Part shown: one piece after another, positions 1,638 to 57,831 of the stretch
How the letters are laid out: the number at the start of each line of letters is the position of its first letter
Numbering within the stretch: position 1 is the first letter of the stretch
DNA from: a bacterium
GTDB lineage: Bacteria > Zhuqueibacterota > Zhuqueibacteria > Oceanimicrobiales > Oceanimicrobiaceae
Assembly (NCBI GenBank): GCA_046757525.1
Contig: JBHHYI010000001.1
Span: 31,073-95,072 of the forward strand
Reading direction: 5' to 3'
Length of the DNA stretch: 64,000 nt
Program-made: the position numbers and the translations under genes
The notes under the pieces: model-generated
What the model was told of the DNA's origin: nothing
Seen by the model: only the letters and a program-made list of their open reading frames with translations
Database searches by the model: none

Positions 1638-1751
1638 TCCTCGTGAGAAGCTTTCTTTAGGGAGGGAAAGGCACCATTTGGAAAGCAACCCGCACCAGAA
1701 ATTCGATTTTCCCGTCCCATTTGTACGCTTTAATCTTGACTTTAGCAAAAA

Positions 1752-3011
1752 TTGAAGGCCGATTTATTAATCCAAAATGCTGAGGAGATCGCAACCGGGC
1801 AGGCGATTGCTGACTTTGCTCCGGCTAAGTGGTCGGTGTTTAAGGGAACCAGTCTCGCTGCCTTTGAGGGCAAAATCGTAGCCCTGGGGCCGAATCGCCA
1901 GGTTCAAGAAACGGTTGAAATGGCTGACAACGGGGTCACTATCGACGCTACCGGCAAAACCGTGACCCCCGGGTTCGTGGACTGCCACACACACCCAATT
2001 TTCAAAGATGCGCGTGAACAGGAGTTTGAAATGCGGGTGGTGGGAAAGAGTTACGAGGAAATTGCAGAAGCCGGTGGTGGGATTCGTGCCAGTGTTAGAA
2101 GTCTACGTCGAGCTTCCAAAGAGCAATTGGTGCAAGCAGCCCTGCCGCGCCTGGACCGCTTTCTCGCACATGGCACCACCACCATCGAAGCAAAATCGGG
2201 CTACGGGTTGACGCTTGAGGATGAAGTCAAATCGTTGGAAGTGATTGCCGAGCTGAATCGGTTGCACCCCCTCGATATCGTTCCCACCTTTTTGGGCGCA
2301 CACGAGATTCCTGATGAATATCGAGGCCAAACGGGAAAGTATCTCGAGGTGGTCATCAATGAAATGCTTCCCAGGGTTGTGGAAAACAACTTAGCTGAAT
2401 TCTGCGACATATTCTGCGAGGCCAATGTTTTCTCCACCCAGGAGGTGCGCAAACTATTTGCCGCGGCCAGGAATGCCGGTTTGAAATTAAAGATTCATGC
2501 CGACCAATTGACTGCCAACGGTGGGGCTTCGTTAGCCGCAGAATTTGGTGCCGTGTCAGCCGACCACCTGGAATACACCACAGCCGGCGATTGGGCCAAC
2601 CTGCTGCACAACCAGGTCGTTCCTGTGCTCCTGCCAGGCGCTGTTTTTTTTATCGGCAAAGACAAGTACGCCAGGGCTCGTGAGATGGTGAAGATGGGCC
2701 TACCAGTCGCTGTCGCCACCGATTTCAATCCTGGGACCTGCATGTCCGAGTCCATGCCACTCATGCTCACCTTGAGCTGTCTGAAACTGAAGCTCACACC
2801 GGCCGAAACCCTTGTGGCCGCTACCTATCACGCCGCATTAGCCATTGATCGGGGGAACTTATTGGGCACTCTTGAAGTAGGAAAAAAGGCTGATTTAGTA
2901 ATCTGGGATATTCCAAACTTTAAGCACATCCCCTATCATTTCGGTGTTAACCTGGTCAGGACCGTAATTAAGAATGGGAATATAGTTTATGAAATCCAAG
3001 ACTCCCGGTGA
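1752..3011 (+). CDS. hutI: imidazolonepropionase
   Basis: 419 aa with an amidohydrolase HxH motif (FVDCHTHPIF). Sits directly downstream of hutU. Confidence 0.9.
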   Translation: MKADLLIQNAEEIATGQAIADFAPAKWSVFKGTSLAAFEGKIVALGPNRQVQETVEMADNGVTIDATGKTVTPGFVDCHTHPIFKDAREQEFEMRVVGKSYEEIAEAGGGIRASVRSLRRASKEQLVQAALPRLDRFLAHGTTTIEAKSGYGLTLEDEVKSLEVIAELNRLHPLDIVPTFLGAHEIPDEYRGQTGKYLEVVINEMLPRVVENNLAEFCDIFCEANVFSTQEVRKLFAAARNAGLKLKIHADQLTANGGASLAAEFGAVSADHLEYTTAGDWANLLHNQVVPVLLPGAVFFIGKDKYARAREMVKMGLPVAVATDFNPGTCMSESMPLMLTLSCLKLKLTPAETLVAATYHAALAIDRGNLLGTLEVGKKADLVIWDIPNFKHIPYHFGVNLVRTVIKNGNIVYEIQDSR

Positions 3012-4195
3012 ACATGAATAAGTTGAATGGCAAGAGAATTAACCCAATCGTTTACGTTGTATTTGCACTCATGCCCATTCTTTCGAACGCGTGCAGTGGC
3101 GACAGTCCCATCGAAGGCTTCGACCTCACCGATGTCACCGACAGAGGGGAGATTCGCAACACCGTTCTTGACACGCTGCAGTTAGAGATGAGTTTTGACA
3201 ATGAGCTCGCACCCACCGGCCATGCCGTGCTTTTGTCATTGGGCGCTTTTGACAACGTGACGACCAAAATCCTGTTGAGATTTGCCACCTTGCCGGATTC
3301 GCTGGTCATCAGCTCAGCGAAGGTGATTCTGCATCCACACGCCGTTATTGGGCGCAGCAAAGGTTCCTTTACGGCAACAGCCCGTCAGGTTACTACGGAT
3401 TGGGACGAAAGCACGGTGACTTCTGAGAGTTTTGACGAGTCGCAGGCTACCACCGTCGTGGGCATGGCGGAGATATTCTCAACCATTGGCAATGCGACCA
3501 GCAAGGATTCGAGTGTGGTCATACCTATCGACCCGGCGTTGGTGAATGCCTGGATAGATTCTTCGGTGGCAAATCAAGGCATCTTGATCGACTTCTCCCG
3601 GGAACTTTTCATCGAAGAGTTTTTCTCAAAGGACAATTCGACCCAACGACCGCAATTGCAACTGCAGTATATGGTGGAAGATACGTTGCAGACGAACAGT
3701 TTTGTTGCCACGGCTGATGCCTTCCTGTTTAAAAGGACAAGTCCATTACCAAGCGGCCCCATTTATGTGGCTAACGGACTAAACCGGCGAAGCATTCTCA
3801 AATTTAAACTCTCTGAGATTCCCCGTGAGGCTACGGTTAGTAAAGCAATGCTGGATTTAAATATACAGCTCGGAAACACATTGCTCACCGGTGATGGCCT
3901 CAAGATTCAAGTTGTACCCCTACTTTCAGAATTTGTCTCGCCCGATTCCTTCAAAACGGATGCAAGTTTTGTTCTTGAGAGGGATGTGAGTGCTTCGGAT
4001 GGTTCCATTCAGATGGACATTCGAAGTCTGCTTCAAACCTGGGTTTCCCAGACCAGAGAGAATTTTGGTTTTGTCATTAGATCGCGCAATCCAGATCGCG
4101 ATGTCTCGCGCATTGCTTTTTTTTCCACGGAGATCGACACGAGTTTAGCCCCCAAAGTGGCAGTAGACTTCACGATCCCCCCCCAAGGTAAATGA
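3008..4195 (+). CDS. lipoprotein with two internally repeated beta-sandwich-like domains (DNRLRE-like?)
   Basis: GTG start overlaps the hutI stop. Lipobox-like signal (ILSNAC). Two halves share motifs (LLRFATLPDSLVISSAKVIL / ILKFKLSEIPREATVSKAMLDL; FFSKDNS / FFSTEIDTS). Confidence 0.45.
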   Translation: MNMNKLNGKRINPIVYVVFALMPILSNACSGDSPIEGFDLTDVTDRGEIRNTVLDTLQLEMSFDNELAPTGHAVLLSLGAFDNVTTKILLRFATLPDSLVISSAKVILHPHAVIGRSKGSFTATARQVTTDWDESTVTSESFDESQATTVVGMAEIFSTIGNATSKDSSVVIPIDPALVNAWIDSSVANQGILIDFSRELFIEEFFSKDNSTQRPQLQLQYMVEDTLQTNSFVATADAFLFKRTSPLPSGPIYVANGLNRRSILKFKLSEIPREATVSKAMLDLNIQLGNTLLTGDGLKIQVVPLLSEFVSPDSFKTDASFVLERDVSASDGSIQMDIRSLLQTWVSQTRENFGFVIRSRNPDRDVSRIAFFSTEIDTSLAPKVAVDFTIPPQGK

Positions 4196-6865: not shown

Positions 6866-8158
6866 TTGGAGCTGATAAAAAAGACAGATCCCCAATTATA
6901 CCGGGCTATCGTAGATGAAATCCACAGACAGAATGAAAAGCTTGAATTAATAGCGTCCGAGAATTTCGTCAGTCCTGCCGTGTTGCAGGCCATGGGGCAG
7001 GTCATGACCAACAAATATGCCGAGGGTTACCCGGCTAAGCGATATTACGGCGGTTGCGAATTTGTAGATGTTGCAGAAGAATTAGCCCGAGACAGAGCCA
7101 AGAAACTTTTCCAAGCGGAACACGCCAACGTACAACCCCACTCAGGTTCCCAGGCCAACATAGCGGCCTATTTTTCTTTCATAAAGCCTGGGGACACGAT
7201 TTTAGGCATGAATTTGTCCCATGGGGGGCATCTGACCCACGGCAGTCCGGTGAATTTTTCCGGGCGAATTTTCCGGGTAGTCTTTTATGGCGTCAATCGA
7301 GAGACTGGGCGCATCGACCTGGACGAAGTGGCGGCTGTGGCCGAAAAAGAAAAGCCGCGGCTCATCATCGTCGGTGCCAGCGCCTACGCCAGAGCTATCG
7401 ATTATGAATCCTTCAGATGGATTGCTGACAAAGTGGGGGCATATCTTGTTGCCGACATTGCTCATCCCGCGGGCTTGATCGCCTGTGAATTGTTGCCAAG
7501 TCCAATGCCCCATTGTCATGCCGTGACCACGACAACACACAAGACTCTGCGCGGGCCCCGCGGCGGCATGATTCTGATCGGAAAGGATCAAGAAAATGAT
7601 TTGGGGATAAAGACGCCCAAGGGGCGGACCAAACTCTGGTCTGAAATCATCGATTCTAACGTCTTTCCCGGCTTTCAGGGCGGCCCTCTCATGCACATCA
7701 TCGCAGCCAAAGCGCTGGCCTTCAAAGAAGCGCTGCAGCCAGACTTCAGAGAGTATTCTAAACAGGTTATCCGGAATGCACAAACTCTGGCCAATGAACT
7801 GATGGAGATGGGATATCATGTCGTCTCAGGCGGCACCGACACGCATCTGATGCTGGTCGACTTGCGCAACAAGGGCTTGACCGGCAAGCAGGCCGAACAG
7901 GCTTTGGAACAAGCGGGCATCACGGTCAACAAGAACATGGTTCCTTTCGATGACCAGAGTCCCTTTGTGACCAGTGGCATTCGTTTAGGGACGCCGGCTT
8001 TGACAACCCGCGGCATGAAAGAAAAGGAGATGGCGGAAATCGCAAAGTTCATCGATTCCGTTTTGTCGCAGATTGACGATAAGACTGTGATCAAAGAGGT
8101 CGCCCATGAGACTTTTGAGCTGTGCGAGCGATTTCCGTTGTACCAGGTGCCGGACTGA
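6866..8158 (+). CDS. glyA: serine hydroxymethyltransferase
   Basis: Full-length SHMT similarity ([13 protein letters not shown], the PLP-lysine region [13 protein letters not shown]). Confidence 0.95.
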
Positions 8159-26642: not shown

Positions 26643-26708
26643 CCGCCAACCTCAGATCGTTGGGCTTCGAGGCTGTTGGTTTGCTCCGCGTGTTTCCTAA
26701 AAGCCCCC

Positions 26709-26732
26709 GCAATCCGGCAGCCGCCGGATTGC
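26709..26732 (+). terminator. perfect 10-bp hairpin downstream of the FemAB-like gene (terminator-like)
   Basis: gcaatccggc-agcc-gccggattgc followed by TTTCAAT. Confidence 0.45.
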
Positions 26733-26855
26733 TTTCAATGTCGGAAACGCCAAGCCAGCCCTGTCATGCAGGAGGCTTCTTGTTACAAGTCAGCACGGTG
26801 TAGCCAGCGGACAAGATTCCTCCTGAATGACACTGGAGGGTGTAATAAAGGACGG

Positions 26856-27141
26856 CGACAGCGAGGCGTTTCCTGAAAGCACTGTGCGAGTCATCCCGAG
26901 TAGGTCGCTGCTGTTCAAGTGACCGTATCGAGGGGTGACGGACGTCGATACGAAATTCCCCTTTTTGAAAGGGGGACGGTTTTTGAAGCGTCCAGCGAAA
27001 AAACCAGGGGGATTTTAGGAGGCGTCCTGAAAACCCAAGCTAAGGTGCTGTCGGCCAGACATCCCTCTGATTTTCGCTCTGAACGAGCGAAAATCTGTCT
27101 CCCTTCAAAGGGAGAATGGCCTCGCAAACGAGACGTTTGCG
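26856..27141 (+). repeat. structured intergenic repeat element, copy A (5' module, hairpin-rich middle, conserved 3' hairpin)
   Basis: Positions 26883-26953 are about 90% identical to 53802-53872. The 3' hairpin cgcaaacg-aga-cgtttgcg is shared with copy B. Confidence 0.6.
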
Positions 27142-27158
27142 CGACGGGCAACGGCTTC

Positions 27159-48349: not shown

Positions 48350-48503
48350 TGATTGACCGAGACTCCCAAAATGTCATTTCGACGCAGTCCAGCAACTGCC
48401 GGACGGAGGAGAAATCTGGTTACATTGGTGCTTAGCCAGATTTCTCATCAGGCATTCGCCTGATTCGAAATGACAGTCGTTAGATGAGTTTTCGGTCAAT
48501 CAC
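48349..48503. repeat. about 155-bp nested inverted-repeat (MITE/REP-like) element between rsmB and the PASTA gene
   Basis: Outer inverted repeat gtgattgaccga / tcggtcaatcac. Inner inverted repeat tgtcatttcga / tcgaaatgaca. Internal stems gagaaatctgg / ccagatttctc and tcaggc / gcctga. Confidence 0.6.
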
Positions 48504-50024: not shown

Positions 50025-50064
50025 TGTCATTTCGAGTCAGGCGGCTGCCTGACTCGAAATGACA
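50025..50064. repeat. perfect 18-bp-stem palindrome sharing the TGTCATTTCGA termini of the 48349-48503 element
   Basis: tgtcatttcgagtcaggc-ggct-gcctgactcgaaatgaca. No U-run follows it. Confidence 0.7.
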
Positions 50065-50321
50065 GTTTGGGGGCTTAAGTTGATGCCGATGGGCGTATGC
50101 CGGATTAATCGGGAATCTTGTGCCTAATTCTCGAATGCATTCCTGCTTACACCATGCAGCAATGACATTCATTGGGCCAATAGATGAAATTCACAATAGT
50201 TTAGTTATTGGATGGCGGATAAACGGGGATGTAATCAAGATTATCTGGGGGTATTACCTTGACGCAGTTACCTACCGTGACGTATTGCCAATCGTATTCT
50301 CAGTCCAGGATAGTTAAGGTG

Positions 50322-51497
50322 TCAATACTTCTTAGCAACGGTTTTATACGCGTCTCTAAATGGCATCCCTCCTTTAACTAATTTATAGACCGCTTCCGTC
50401 GCATAAACTTCTTCGGTCATCGCTTTTGCACAATTGTCCTCGTTGACTTTGAGATTCTGGAAAATGAGGCTCATGATTTCAATACTGGCCCTTGTAATTT
50501 CAAAGGCCTGCATGATTGGTTTTTTGGTAAGTTGTAAGTCTCGATGATAGCCTGATATCAAGTTACCGATGATATTCTTGATTTGGAATTCCTGTGACAC
50601 GACGATGTGGCATCTTGCTCGCAGCAGCTCCAACACATCCGGGTTCTTTTTTTGTGGCATAATCGAACTGCCTGTGCAAAAATCCTCAGGCAATTCGAAA
50701 TACCCGAACTCCGGCATGCTGAATACGATTAAGTCGGAGGCTATTTTATTTAAATCGAACATGATTTGACTTAACGCGTGCAGTATGGTGGATTCAAATT
50801 TCCCGCGGCTGTTTTGACAGTAAATCGGGTTTTGTTGCAGCTTTTTAAAACCCAATAACTCAGTCGTCATATCTCTATTTATTTTCAGAGGGATGCCATA
50901 GCCGGCGCCAGTTCCTAACGGTGATTGATCCACTAATTCAAGTGAAAGTTCAACTACTTTCAGGTTGTCATTCATTGAATCGATAAACGAAGTTCCCCAC
51001 ATGCTAACCGCGGAGGGCATGGCTTTTCTTGTATGGGAATATCCTGGAAATATTATTTCTCCGTACTTTTTGCTAAAATTAGCGATTGCTTTGATTAGTC
51101 GCTCCACCGATTTCTTGCATTCATTCAGCTCATGCTTATAAAACAATCTCAATGCCGTCAACACCTGGTCGTTTCTCGACCGTGCGGTATGTATCTTCTT
51201 ACCCAAATCGCCTAACTTTTTTACCAGATGGTTCTCGATGGCGGTGTGACAATCCTCTTGTTCTTTCCGAATCTTGAATTTGCCCTTCTTATCTAAGTGG
51301 ATAATGTGGTTTAGTTCCCGTTCGAGTTTTTGCACCTCTTGTTCGTTCAAAATGCCAACCGTGCCCAGCATCTTAGCGTGGGCAATCGAAGCTATGCAGT
51401 CGTATTTCACTAATTTCTGGTCCAGAATAAAGTCATCATCCACGGTGAAGTCTTCGATCTGTTTATTTGGGTGGGTGTGCGTTTGCCAAAGTTTCAT
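50322..51497 (-). CDS. argH: argininosuccinate lyase (short, about 391 aa, C-terminal part apparently missing)
   Basis: Fumarate-lyase signature [12 protein letters not shown]. About 41% GC versus about 53% in flanking DNA. Start placed at MKLWQ, overlapping the argG 3' end. Confidence 0.8.
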
Positions 51498-52743
51498 ATT
51501 TTCGCCAATCATACGGTTTTCTCTTGCGTAACACAAGATGGTGAGCTTTTAATCTAATGGCATTAATGTTGATAAAGCCGCGCGAGTCTGTTGCGTCAAA
51601 TCCACCTTCGACTTCCATACTGGAGAGGTCCTGTTCGTAAAGAGATGTGGGGGATTCTCTGCCGATTATATTCACACTGCCTTTGTACAGAGAAAGAAGG
51701 ACTCTGCCGTCGATGGCTTCTTGACTTTTGTTGAAAGCGCTCATGATAAAATCCATTTCCGGTGAAAACCAAAAGCCATTATAAATCAATTCAGAAAATT
51801 TTGGTATCAGCATGTCCCGCAAGTGCATAACTTCTTTGTCCATGGCAATGCCTTCCAGGTCTCTGTGGGCTTCCCAAAGAATAGTAGCCCCGGGAGATTC
51901 ATAAATACCTCTGGATTTTATCCCAATAAACCGATTTTCAACCATATCCACTCTGCCGATTCCATTTTCGCTGCCCAAATCATTTAAATACATGAATAGT
52001 TCCAGGGGCTTATCCTTGACAATCTCTTTATTTTTGTTGATGACCTTTACCGGGAAGCCATTCTTAAAATGAATCTCGACGATCGTCTCCTCGTCGGGCG
52101 TTTGCTTGATCGATTTGGTCATGGAAAATATATTTTCAGGCGGCCGATAAAATGTGTTTTCCAAAACGCCGGCTTCGTGGCTTATGTGCATCAAGTTTTC
52201 ATCTTCGCTGTACGGTTTTTCTTTGGAGGCTTTCACCGAAATGTTCCATTTTTTGGCATAATTCAATAAGTCACTTCTCCCCTTGAATTCTTCTAAGAAT
52301 TCCGGATCCTTCCACGGGGAGACTATTTTGATGTCAGGATTTAGAGCGTAGTAAGTAAGTTCAAATCTCACCTGATCATTTCCTTTGCCTGTGGCCCCAT
52401 GGGAAACAAATTCTGCGTTCTCGATTTCAGCAATTTCAATTTGTTTTTTCGAAAGTAGGGGTCTCGCTAAGGAGGTGCCGAGCAAGTACCTGCCCTCATA
52501 AAGTGCGTTGCCTCGCAGCGCAGGGAAGATGTAATCTGTGACAAACACTTCTCTCAGATCTTCTGTAAAAACTTTAGAAGCTCCGGTTGCAAGCGCTTTT
52601 TGTTCAAGCGCTTTGAAATCCTCTTGTTGTCCAACGTTGCCTACGAAACAAATTACCTCAAATCCTTTATTAAGCAACCATTTTAAAATTACAGACGTGT
52701 CCAGTCCGCCACTATAAGCCAGGATCAGTTTTTTCGTTGCCAT
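51463..52743 (-). CDS. argG: argininosuccinate synthase
   Basis: [12 protein letters not shown]-loop, 426 aa, low GC like argH. Confidence 0.9.
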
Positions 52744-52745
52744 AA

Positions 52746-53735
52746 TTAATCACGATCGTTTTGGTTATGCATGAGTTTATGCCGCTTCTCCAAGAGCGCG
52801 TCAATTGCGGAGATGGTTTCCCTGGGAAGTTTCCAGTCACCCGCCCCAATGGTTTGCTCAATTTGCACTTGACGCCTCGCTCCCACAATCGCGGCGGTGA
52901 CTTCAGGGCGCCGCAGCACCCAGGCGATTGCAAGCTGGGCAACGGACTTCCCATGTTCCTCGGCCAGCGACCTCAGAGCGTCCACGAACGCCAGATTCGA
53001 GCTCAGCTCAGGCTCCCGGAATCGGCTGTCAACCGTTCGTCTGTGGTCCGCCTCCGGCAACGCTTCTACCCATTCTCGGGTAAACTTGTCCGTCAAAATA
53101 CCTTTCTGCAAGGGACTGTAAGGGATGACCCCGATGTTTTTTGCTGAACAATAATCCAGCAGATTATTTTCAACGTTGCGTTCAAGCATGCTGTACGGCG
53201 GCTGCACCGAAGCCACCAGGTGAATCGCTGCAATGCGCTCGAGTTGTTTTACACTAAAATTGCACACGGCGGCATACCGGATTTTCCCTTCTTCGACCAA
53301 CTCTGCTAATGCGCCCCAGGCTTCTTCGATATCATTTTTCGGGTCTGGCCAGTGAATTTGATAGAGATCGATCGCCTCGATTTGCAGTCGTCTTAAGCTG
53401 GCCTCTACTTCAGCCCGAACACTCGCTCGTTTTAATCTTCCGAAAACGTTGCCGTCTTTATCCCAGGCCAGGCCGCATTTGGTGGCAAGGATGGGCTTAG
53501 CGCTCCTGCCTTTAATGGCTTGGCCCACGACTTCCTCAGCGTGACCCAACCCGTAGACCGGGGCGGTGTCAATCCAATTGACGCCTAAATCAAGCGCACG
53601 TTGGATAGTAGTGATCGATTCTTGATCATCCTGTGGGCCCCAGCCAAAAGGCCAGCCGCCACCGCCGATAGCCCAGGTGCCGAGTCCAATAGGAGTCAAT
53701 TCTAAATCTGTGGAGCCTAATTTTTTTGTTTGCAT
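52746..53735 (-). CDS. aldo/keto reductase family oxidoreductase
   Basis: LGTWAIGG and WIDTAPVYG motifs. Start placed at MQTKKLG (53735). The rest of the tracked ORF is 5' leader. Confidence 0.8.
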
Positions 53736-53779
53736 GGTTTTTCGAAGCTTTGTGCGCGTTTTTACACTAAAGAAAACGA

Positions 53780-53995
53780 CTGAAGTGGTTCTTAGAAACA
53801 ATGTGCAAGTCATCCCGAGTAGGTCACCGCTGTTCAGGTGACCGTATCGAGGGGTGACGGGCTTCGATACGTCCCGACCAAAAAGCGGTAGGGACCAAAC
53901 GGTGACCTTCTTTGAGAAGGTTACCGTTTGACAACCCCGCCCTCGCAATCGAGACGATTGCGTTACGTGCAACAGAGCGTTTCCTGAGAGTGTAC
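53780..53995 (+). repeat. structured intergenic repeat element, copy B
   Basis: Positions 53802-53872 are about 90% identical to 26883-26953. Contains a 15-bp hairpin (53905-53937) and the shared 3' hairpin cgcaatcg-aga-cgattgcg (53944-53962). Confidence 0.6.
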
Positions 53996-54344: not shown

Positions 54345-54441
54345 GCAATCGTTTAACGGTGAATAGGCAGTTTGGTCTACATAATATTACAAAGGGGTTT
54401 TATGTAGATCAAGCGGCACAAAAGGAGGAGGAGTGCACAGC

Positions 54442-54642
54442 ATGTTTAGAGGTAAAGTCAAATGGTTCAACGACAACAAAGGTTATGGTTTCATTGAACA
54501 CGAAAACGGGGAGGATGTATTCGTCCACTTTTCTGTTATTGAGATGGATGGTTACAAAACCTTGCAAGAAGGCATAGAAGTGGAATATGAATGCATAAAC
54601 GGCGAAAAGGGCCTGCACGCTACGCGCGTAACCAAGATTTAG
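54442..54642 (+). CDS. cold-shock protein (CspA family)
   Basis: [18 protein letters not shown] with RNP1/RNP2 motifs. 66 aa. Confidence 0.9.
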
Positions 54643-56241: not shown

Positions 56242-57831
56242 ATGTCGAAAGTCTCTGAGCGCAAAAAAATATTTACTACCGATTCCGGCATTAAAGTCAA
56301 AGCTGTCTACGACGAGGCAGATGTCGCAGACTCCAAGGGTCTGCTGGGCTTTCCTGGAGCGTATCCCTTCACTCGCGGGATTTATTCCAATATGTATCGC
56401 GGCCGATTTTGGAGCATGCGGCAATATGGCGGTTTTGGTACGGCAAAGGAAACCAACCAAAGATTCAAGTATTTGCTGGATAACGGACAAACGGGCCTGT
56501 CGGTCGCCTTTGATCTGCCTACCCAAATGGGTTTCGATTCGGACTCCCCGCTGGCAGAAGGCGAAGTGGGGAAGGCAGGCGTGGCGATCGATAGCCTCAG
56601 GGACATGGAGATTCTGTTCCAGGATATACCGCTGGAGAAAATAACCACGTCCATGACCATCAACGCTACTGCTGCCATTCTTCTGGCCCTTTATGTGGCC
56701 ATCGCCAGGAAGCAGGGTGCAGATTTGAAACGAATCAGCGGCACGATTCAAAATGACATTCTCAAAGAATACATCGCTCGCTCGACTTACATTTATCCGC
56801 CGGAGCCCTCGATGCGAATCGTGACCGACATTTTTGAGTATTGCAAAGACCACCTGCCGCGCTGGAACACGATCTCCATAAGCGGCTACCACATCCGCGA
56901 GGCTGGTGCCAATGCCATCCAGGAGTTGGCGTTTACCTTTGCCAATGCCATCGCCTACATTGAGGCGGCCCTGAAGCGCGGTTTGAATGTGGATGAATTT
57001 GGCGGTCGGTTGTCCTATTTCTTTGCCTGTCATAACAATTTTTTTGAAGAAATTGCCAAATTCCGGGCGGCGCGTCGTATTTATGCAACCATTATGAAGG
57101 AAAGATTCAACGCTGCCAGGCCGAAGACCCTGATGCTGCGGTTCCATACGCAAACAGGTGGGTCCACCTTGACCGCGCAACAACCGGATAACAACATCAT
57201 TCGGGTGGCGTTGCAGGCCCTCGCCGCTGTTTTGGGCGGCACGCAGTCGTTGCACACCAACTCCAAAGACGAAGCGCTGGCGCTCCCGACCGAGGAGGCC
57301 GTACGCATCGCCTTGCGAACCCAGCAAATCATCGCTCATGAATCGGGCGTGGCCGACACCGTCGATCCGCTGGGGGGGAGCTATTTTCTGGAATCCCTGA
57401 CCCAAGAAATCGAGTCCAAAGTGTGGGGATATCTTGACCGAATCCAGAAGTTGGGAGGGGCGGTAAAAGCCATTGAAGAGCACTATTTTCAGGAGGAGAT
57501 CAGCAGAAGCGCCTACAAATATCAGAAAGAGATCGAGGCGAATGATAGAATCATCGTGGGCGTGAATGAATTTGTTCATGAAGAGAAAGAACCTCAATCA
57601 ATTTTGCGCGTCGATCCCTCGGTCCGCAGCGAACAAATAGCTGCCCTGAAAAAATTAAGAGCCGATAGAGATACTGGCAAAGTCGAGCGTTTGCTGGCAG
57701 AATTGAGAACGGCTGCGCAAGGCTCTGAAAATCTCATGCCCAAGATTCTGGCCTGTGTCGAAGGTTACGTAACCCTGGGAGAAATCTCTGACACCTTGCG
57801 AGAAGTCTTCGGCAGCTACAGCGAAAGCTGA
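56242..57831 (+). CDS. methylmalonyl-CoA mutase-family catalytic (TIM-barrel) subunit, no B12-binding domain in this ORF
   Basis: 529 aa matching the MCM large-subunit N-terminal domain ([24 protein letters not shown]). Confidence 0.85.

Follow-up and report, generated by a model that had tools for sequence, protein, structure and literature searches.

The module of about 71 nt that occurs twice in the window, that is, in the whole 64,000-nt stretch of DNA analyzed here, is probably a GTAG-tagged palindromic repeat of the REP/BIME/REPIN kind. We assign a probability of about 0.6 to this reading, according to which the repeat is non-autonomous mobile DNA and its two window copies, A and B, are diverged and truncated relics. 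For the window, this would remove a candidate riboswitch and leave two repeat relics in its place.

The two copies occupy positions 26883–26953 and 53802–53872 and differ at seven positions, which corresponds to the originally reported identity of 90%. They belong to the single direct-repeat family of the window (26863–26952 versus 53782–53871, 84% identity over 90 nt), and exact sub-blocks of 17 and 21 nt were found only at these two sites within the window, even when three mismatches were allowed, with chance expectations of 0.07 and 0.00, respectively. The outer stem P1 predicted for copy A (GTCATCCC at 26890–26897 with GGGGTGAC at 26932–26939, including one U-G pair) and the inner hairpin P2 (GGTCGCT at 26903–26909 with AGTGACC at 26918–26924) were both confirmed. 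The P2 stem of copy B is GGTCACC/GGTGACC and differs from that of copy A by one double substitution (U-A to C-G) and one change from G-U to A-U; three of the seven core differences sit in P2, and all pairs are kept. Compared with shuffled sequences, the plus strands of A and B gave folding z-scores of −2.1 and −3.0, respectively, versus +0.5 and −0.7 for the minus strands.

The region 26856–27141, which the original prediction treated as one structured unit, turned out to be a mosaic consisting of a left unit with an inverted stump, a palindrome of 163 nt, and a block of 33 nt. The complete left (L-type) unit of copy A lies at 26886–26943 on the plus strand and was detected by our covariance model R1 with 46.1 bits and an E-value of 4e-9. 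In this unit, the two P1 strands at 26890–26897 and 26932–26939 enclose GAGTAG (26898–26903), the P2 hairpin (26903–26924), and GTATCGA (26925–26931). The stump GTCGATACG follows at 26944–26952 on the plus strand and pairs with 26924–26930. This pairing, between CGTATCG at 26924–26930 and CGATACG at 26946–26952, had escaped the first inspection of the sequence and is the remnant of a second, inverted unit of the right (R) type, as recognized by comparison with a complete dimer of the window type (locus L100, 490–606) and with dimers from Anaerolineae. Next to it, self-alignment revealed the nested imperfect palindrome of 163 nt at 26955–27117, which is assigned to neither strand and is 63.5% self-complementary; no equivalent palindrome was found in copy B. 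The remaining hairpins predicted for copy A, at 26958–26974, 27069–27095, and 27098–27115, are present within this palindrome, and the dense hairpins of this copy are best described as a pile-up of separate palindromes.

In copy B, the complete L-type unit lies at 53805–53862 on the plus strand (R1, 45.9 bits, E = 5e-9), with P1 at 53809–53816 and 53851–53858, GAGTAG at 53817–53822, P2 at 53822–53843, and GTATCGA at 53844–53850. It is followed on the plus strand by a right-unit remnant at 53862–53894, which consists of CTTCGATACG and a hairpin TCCC...GGGA (53872–53894) and is devoid of the terminal CTACTCRGG tag. This hairpin resembles that of the right unit of L100. A palindrome of 35 nt, CAAACGGTGACCTTCTTTGAGAAGGTTACCGTTTG, which is specific to copy B, is assigned to neither strand, and is 85.7% self-complementary, occupies 53896–53930.

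Both copies end in the same plus-strand block of 33 nt (27120–27152 in A and 53941–53973 in B, 85% identity). This block contains the terminal hairpin noted earlier, CGCAAACG-AGA-CGTTTGCG at 27123–27141 in copy A and CGCAATCG-AGA-CGATTGCG at 53944–53962 in copy B, and the described swap from A-T to T-A is present. No further copy of this lineage-specific block was found in about 0.9 Mb of related loci, and only two sequences therefore bear on the compensatory swap. The direct repeat GAGGCGT(TT)CCTGAAA in copy A is also real; its occurrences start at 26863 and 27019 instead of 26853 and 27018. A short motif, GCGTTTCCTGAAAG, marks the 5′ border of copy A on the plus strand (26866–26879) and recurs at the 3′ border of copy B (53977–53990), with weaker matches at 27019–27032 and 26690–26703; five matches were counted versus 1.4 expected.

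Beyond the element borders, A and B show no similarity, and their middles do not match each other either. Each copy has a whole left unit and a right unit reduced to (C)TTCGATACG, accompanied in copy B by the hairpin, and relative to L100, an identical central segment and the terminal CTACTCRGG tag are missing from both. A and B therefore descend from one dimer that was already truncated and are two diverged copies of it. Copy A would have gained its separate palindrome of 163 nt later than this truncation. Both have lost the right-hand tag and are most likely immobile relics now; their sole local effect would come from stable hairpins between genes.

Copy A has a GNAT/FemAB-like gene on one side and, on the other, an unassigned ORF for a protein of 358 aa, which is followed by a GT9 heptosyltransferase gene; an exact look-up of the 358-aa protein gave no record. 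Copy B lies between the divergent genes of an aldo/keto reductase and a cold-shock protein (54433–54642), with a recombinase gene further on. This tyrosine recombinase is an ordinary XerD-like protein and was dismissed. No tie between the element and the glycosyltransferase gene was found: the family members adjoin unrelated genes in either orientation.

To define the family, we scanned one genome per bacterial species with the degenerate pattern TCCCGAGTAGG-N12-34-TATCGAGGGG and obtained at least 96 loci, versus about six chance matches expected for 21 fixed bases. Among the matches listed, the record titles name Anaerolineae, Caldilineaceae, Dehalococcoidia, and many MAGs of Alphaproteobacteria and Rhodospirillaceae, as well as Nitrospinota, Latescibacterota, Vulcanimicrobiota, Desulfobacterota, Thiobacillaceae, and Nevskia; Chloroflexota are among the phyla represented. 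The unit is also carried by complete chromosomes such as OY762427.1, OZ242200.1, and OZ241875.1. The loci from Hymenobacter and Acidobacteriaceae, which scored weakly (25–27 bits), are probably chance matches. The covariance model R1, built from 100 distinct units, detected 209 units in the 696 kb of the at least 96 loci listed, additional units in viral and metagenome loci, and in the window only the two known units (two copies per 64 kb). About 200 further copies were found in this way. A narrower pattern of the window type matched three contigs of one metagenome, and a looser pattern identified 25 viral contigs carrying the unit. Among the matches listed, single MAGs contained at least eight separate loci, and the local density reached nine units within 8 kb. 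Overall, the family spans at least six bacterial phyla and some phages.

No match was obtained by BLAST with an alphaproteobacterial dimer against 72,556 plasmids or with two phage-contig sites as queries against 50,697 phage records. Rfam 15 gave no match on the module of either copy at E-values up to 10. No family was assigned to the module at the gathering thresholds on the copies, at E-values up to 0.01 on the whole window, or at E-values up to 0.1 on eight related loci. The conserved strings, searched as DNA and RNA on both strands in the searchable literature, gave only chance matches to primers and genes; they are absent from the text and supplements of Di Nocera et al. 2013 (PMC3733652) and from Nunvar 2010, and the literature on sponge symbionts with repeats yielded nothing specific. 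The unit family is without an entry in Rfam 15 and without mention in the searched literature. The titles of many carrier MAGs seem to suggest marine or host-associated communities, and a cross-phylum family in such communities would mark horizontal DNA traffic.

The unit, 42–60 nt in length, comprises, in order, the P1 5′ strand YCCY, GAGTAG, a variable region, (C)GTATCGA, and the P1 3′ strand RGGR. GAGTAG and GTATCGA are almost invariant, including in units where the search pattern had left them free, and their columns were invariant or nearly so in 139 units aligned by nhmmer. P1 position 1 was C-G in 131 units and T-A in 74, and position 4 was T-G in 129, C-G in 45, and T-A in 24; five of the six possible combinations of these two positions were observed, and at least 95% of the cells were paired at each of the four P1 positions. 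P1 is lengthened to 7–8 bp in units of the window and Anaerolineae types and shows further covariation there, as in the variants GUCAUCCC/GGGGUGAC (the window copies, written as RNA), GCAUCCC/GGGGUGC, and GUCGUCCU/AGGGCGAC (the right unit of L100). P2 varies freely in sequence and length, and at fixed sites it is swapped between L038 and L045. Among its 114 distinct versions, 67% closed with at least 4 bp, compared to 11% of the shuffled sequences. On the model-guided alignment, 98.2% of the cells were paired versus 90.1% in the shuffles, and 108 cells were changed on both sides versus 30.5. The covariation score was 0.24 versus 0.10 in the shuffles, a value reached by none of 500 shuffles, and slid controls stayed at or below 0.058. 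Both helices covary strongly, and this covariation, together with the approximately 200 copies, agrees with the earlier proposal of selection on the fold rather than a decaying private duplication. The counts of G-T and A-C in P2 were 4 and 3, respectively, and indicate no strand preference.

RNAalifold additionally paired GUA with UAU, and a minimal variant, CCCTGAGC-TTG-TCGAAGGG, keeps P1 and GAG/CGA with P2 absent. Because of these two features, the fold can be modeled as a near-continuous rod, in which P1 would be followed by a tandem G-A/A-G step with a G-C closing pair, two single-base bulges, and P2. The GAGUAG/GUAUCGA loop probably contains tandem G-A pairs. To our knowledge, based on an informal comparison, this loop fits none of the kink-turn, sarcin-ricin/loop E, hammerhead, hairpin, and HDV-like cores.

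The units were found as singles, as inverted dimers with the tags inside or outside and spacers of about 5–35 nt, and as alternating clusters. Nearly every L-type unit is paired with an inverted, slightly different R-type unit (CCCTGAGTAG...CGTATCGAAGGG), and the differences between the two types are compensated inside each unit, not between the arms. The tags point toward each other in Alphaproteobacteria and Latescibacterota, with about 30 nt of spacer between them; alternating clusters occur at L007 and L024, and a tandem array of 216 nt occurs at L085. The Anaerolineae dimer, whose tags point away from each other, forms a palindrome of about 170 nt bounded by the outer inverted repeats (A)ATGTCATTAAGTTA; direct duplications of 8–11 bp flank three of these elements (L004, L017, and L082), and flanking duplications were absent in several other Anaerolineae copies examined.

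Of 192 units that could be placed with rough gene calls, 175 are intergenic and the other 17 lie inside predicted ORFs. Among the intergenic units, 68 have convergent neighbors and 91 have co-directional ones, which are antisense to the L-type strand in 52 cases and sense in 39. The remaining 16, copy B included, have divergent neighbors. The placement is mainly downstream of gene ends, in either orientation relative to the genes. All-against-all clustering of 2,337 ORFs from the 96 loci listed revealed no recurrent neighboring protein family, and the ORFs between inverted units are ordinary genes, such as that of a leucyl aminopeptidase in L077. Some bacterial group II introns target DNA stem-loops. 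In L011, a group II intron (RF00029, 50.4 bits) is inserted in the dimer spacer immediately 3′ of the hairpin, which supports a real stem-loop in vivo.

A set of phage-like contigs encoding a CHAP lysin and a large polyvalent protein carries at least six units, all on one strand and 5–30 nt from the flanking stop and start codons, and one unit is retained in six related contigs of an HK97-type prophage, where it separates two head genes, a small one and that of the prohead protease. The mRNA of these phages and prophages carries the complement of the L-type strand, whereas the L-type strand of the window is co-oriented with the genes. Therefore, a strand-specific RNA role is not consistent across the cases, and the hairpin may have a role in either orientation in the phage and window cases.

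GTAG REPs have a GTAG tag, stems of 6–13 bp, and complementary stem changes; they form clusters, heterodimers, and HH/TT dimers 20–100 bp apart, and are found preferentially at gene pairs that are unidirectional or convergent (Di Nocera et al. 2013, PMC3733652). The same study describes 24 GTAG families, and the kind includes the E. coli REP, Pseudomonas GTAG-1, and Stenotrophomonas SMAG. The present family shares these traits: GTAG lies directly 5′ of a GC-rich stem-loop, with GAGTAG directly 5′ of P2 in A and B; the stems vary through complementary substitutions; the units form singles, head-head or tail-tail dimers, and clusters, of which the window keeps only partner stumps; their sites are intergenic, for the most part behind genes in unidirectional or convergent arrangement; and heterodimers are composed of two slightly different unit types. 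On the other hand, a second, outer helix encloses the tag here, so that GAGTAG and GTATCGA form an internal loop instead of a free tail, and the unit is, owing to this helix, 42–60 nt long versus the usual 20–40 bp. A typical REP family does not extend beyond a genus or an order, whereas the loop of this family is identical across at least six phyla and phages, which counts against the REP reading, as does the presence of only two copies in the 64-kb window. A loop that stays the same from Chloroflexota through Alphaproteobacteria to phage contigs is unusual for a REP-like unit, and the family is a test case for whether a transposase or an RNA-level function constrains a repeat.

As in REPINs, a single long hairpin can form from two inverted units and the short spacer between them, and singletons resemble decayed dimers, as A and B do. 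REPINs were defined with a single-copy RAYT gene flanked by them and were described as vertically inherited (Bertels and Rainey 2011, PMC3116915). In contrast, no RAYT link was found for the present family, and its spread over many phyla and phages suggests horizontal transfer. The family shares with MITEs such as Correia and Nezha that its members are short, non-coding, palindromic, and multi-copy. TIR-like ends and duplications of 8–11 bp (three cases) are confined to the Anaerolineae subfamily, and the window, alphaproteobacterial, and phage copies are free of TIRs and duplications; moreover, the conserved part is internal and folds by itself.

The subterminal hairpin of IS200/IS605 elements is imperfect and bulged and is recognized as single-stranded DNA by a Y1 HUH enzyme; the ends of these elements are direct, on a single strand, and enclose tnpA/tnpB. 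The units resemble them in that a short conserved sequence lies 5′ of the foot of an imperfect, bulged hairpin, and differ in being inverted with no transposase in between.

A motif scan detected no Y1/RAYT gene in the window or within 4 kb of about 200 units, and no gene flanked by units was found by tblastn with 12 RAYT/TIRYT sequences in the window and about 0.9 Mb of loci. The only RAYT-like sequence detected is a frameshifted, MITE-interrupted remnant in L099 (3279–3684), at a distance of 3.7 kb from a unit and with no units flanking it; contigs with homologues of this remnant (L126–L128) contain no units, and a protein search likewise gave nothing but degraded remnants that units do not flank. 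The REP/REPIN lead given in the original prediction is the best fit to the family. Since no RAYT gene was found near any copy, the mobilizing enzyme is one that we infer, and the GTAG tag directly 5′ of the hairpin suggests an HUH/Y1 transposase of the RAYT/TIRYT kind. The folded single strand, as lagging-strand DNA and incidentally as RNA, would be the substrate of this trans-acting enzyme, by which the non-autonomous element would be moved. Copies that lose the fold would no longer be copied, and family members would overwrite one another; together, these processes would explain paired stem changes around a fixed loop. At the contig end of L036, an apparent N-terminus of a recombinase was seen beside the unit, where no ORF is listed.

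Invariant loop nucleotides between two covarying helices are also a pattern of functional RNAs, and the core is identical within differing outer contexts across lineages. These features would suit a structured RNA with a function of its own (a signal for processing or stability, the binding site of a conserved protein, or a small ribozyme), a module that was spread by several carriers (MITE-like elements, REP-like dimers, and phages) and has the GAGUAG/GUAUCGA loop as its active or recognized part. However, both strands are used relative to the flanking genes, the transcribed strand in phages is opposite to that of the window, and the units mostly form inverted pairs, so that any transcript has one sense and one antisense unit. 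In P1 position 4, U-G would become a C-A mismatch on the opposite strand, which speaks for an RNA; in P2, there is no excess of G-U over A-C. The retention of P1 and GAG/CGA in the minimal variant agrees with such a module, and the same-strand intercistronic phage copies and the conserved prophage site resemble a signal in use, at the RNA or DNA level, more than junk. No Rfam family matched, even at an E-value of 10. We regard this module as a tentative possibility, and we give equally limited credence to the unit being an undescribed, deeply conserved motif with its own molecular function, for instance in processing or protection, as the site bound by a conserved factor, or as a small ribozyme; such a motif would be used by phages between cistrons and would have spread through many bacterial phyla by hitch-hiking on various mobile carriers. 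The outer inverted repeats and the duplications of 8–11 bp point to a DDE transposase for the Anaerolineae subfamily, and the family as a whole could be an ordinary MITE moved by such an enzyme, with the unit as internal cargo or a subterminal binding site. This is unlikely, because the outer repeats and duplications are missing from the alphaproteobacterial, window-type, and phage copies, several Anaerolineae copies have no duplication, and no transposase recurs near the units.

Both A and B lie on the plus strand upstream of plus-strand genes, and their plus strands fold better than shuffled sequences, as expected of a cis-regulatory leader (riboswitch or attenuator) of the 358-aa and GT9 genes (A) and the cold-shock gene (B). 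Copy B is about 570 nt from the start of the cold-shock gene, and about 200 nt of other palindromes separate copy A from the next gene. The approximately 200 relatives adjoin unrelated genes of no common family, mostly downstream of genes, rarely between divergent genes, and in both orientations, and they are multi-copy and arranged as inverted pairs. No gene family was seen to recur downstream of the unit at a constant distance and in a constant orientation, and the leader was rejected as very improbable. It is no more probable that A and B arose by a recent segmental duplication in one genome and acquired stem-preserving differences by luck. This would accommodate the presence of only two window copies with the 5′ block, the 3′ block, and the truncation of the right unit in common; however, the similarity does not extend past the element borders and the middles differ entirely, three of the seven core differences lie in P2 with every pair intact, and hundreds of copies with the same fold occur elsewhere.

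The right arm of the palindrome in copy A showed a match to Rfam whalefall-1 (RF01762) at 27058–27118 on the minus strand. The match covers the full model length and scored 35.5 bits, below the gathering score of 37, with an E-value of 1.4e-5 for the whole window. Whalefall-1 is listed as a non-cis-regulatory RNA from whale-fall metagenomes only (Weinberg et al. 2010, PMC2864571). The right arm covers the two hairpins of the model; the match concerns the insert of copy A, not the 71-nt module, and the matching sequence forms one half of an inverted pair here.

A public assembly identical to the window (L097) stops at window position 53831, inside copy B. A break at this site fits the expectation for a repeat, and other assembly breaks caused by the repeat could be flagged with the covariance model.

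The 516-nt intergenic region that holds copy A, one of the two worn GTAG-tagged repeat units of the window, is a pile-up of hairpin repeats. An imperfect palindrome of 163 nt occupies positions 26955–27117, and its right arm corresponds to a near-threshold match to whalefall-1 (RF01762) on the minus strand at 27058–27118, while its left arm is a degenerate copy of the whalefall-1-like unit on the opposite strand. Since the near-threshold unit and its degenerate opposite-strand copy form the two arms of one palindrome, whalefall-1 itself may be a palindromic interspersed repeat and not a stand-alone sRNA gene. Two further palindromes were observed in this region, a 71-nt element with TGTCAT...ATGACA ends at 26762–26832 and a terminator-like hairpin, GCAATCCGGC/GCCGGATTGC, at 26709–26732.

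Another small family of repeats in the window, at 48440–48477, 50029–50066, and 56723–56760, folds into a long hairpin whose ends read TGTCAT...ATGACA; its best copy, at 50027–50064, is TGTCATTTCGAGTCAGGC-GGCT-GCCTGACTCGAAATGACA. In a related locus (L088), an Anaerolineae repeat was interrupted by an element whose ends resemble TGTCAT...ATGACA; the Anaerolineae elements themselves have ATGTCATT at their ends.

In the surroundings of copy B, a gene for a CspA-family cold-shock protein lies on the plus strand at 54433–54642, and about 700 nt of non-coding DNA separates it from a divergent aldo/keto reductase gene. At 54514–54586 there is a partial match to the Rfam cspA-thermoregulator, which at 32 bits falls far short of the gathering score; the coding sequence of the cold-shock gene is its probable source. 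The Logan assembly contig L097 was identical to window positions 50178–53831 and stopped within the inner hairpin of copy B, which is likely a repeat-induced assembly break.

Further observations concern units outside the window, in related loci. At orthologous sites in two alphaproteobacterial species (L038, 7371–7422, and L045, 2921–2971), the unit was present in both and the flanks were conserved, whereas the P2 stem was wholly different (GGCGCGC..GCGCGCT versus GGCCCCG..GGGGCC). The sequences suggest that family members replaced or converted one another, rather than diverging by stepwise mutation. In locus L011, the spacer within a dimer of the repeat was interrupted, 3 nt past the first hairpin, by a group II intron (1697–3940, minus strand; RF00029, 50.4 bits) that contains a reverse-transcriptase ORF. 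In locus L085 (3080–3700), a composite of a right-type unit, a spacer, a truncated left unit, and a G-rich palindrome occurred in three tandem repeats with a period of 216 nt.

Two contigs from one metagenome, L098 (about 2630–2735) and L099 (about 7235–7340), carried a different palindromic repeat, GCAGAAACCGACCTTCT...AGAAGGTCGGCTTCTG, directly upstream of a window-type unit. L099 also contained a frameshifted RAYT-like gene (3279–3684) with 61% identity to E. coli RayT across the HUH region; the gene is truncated by a small, roughly 150-nt element (3685–3835) with inverted-repeat ends, AGTAGTGTCCGGTTAG...CTAACCGGACACTACT. The phage-like contig L105 showed an extreme GC skew of −0.32 to −0.39 on the plus strand over its whole 9.6-kb locus, and its long ORFs were all on one strand.
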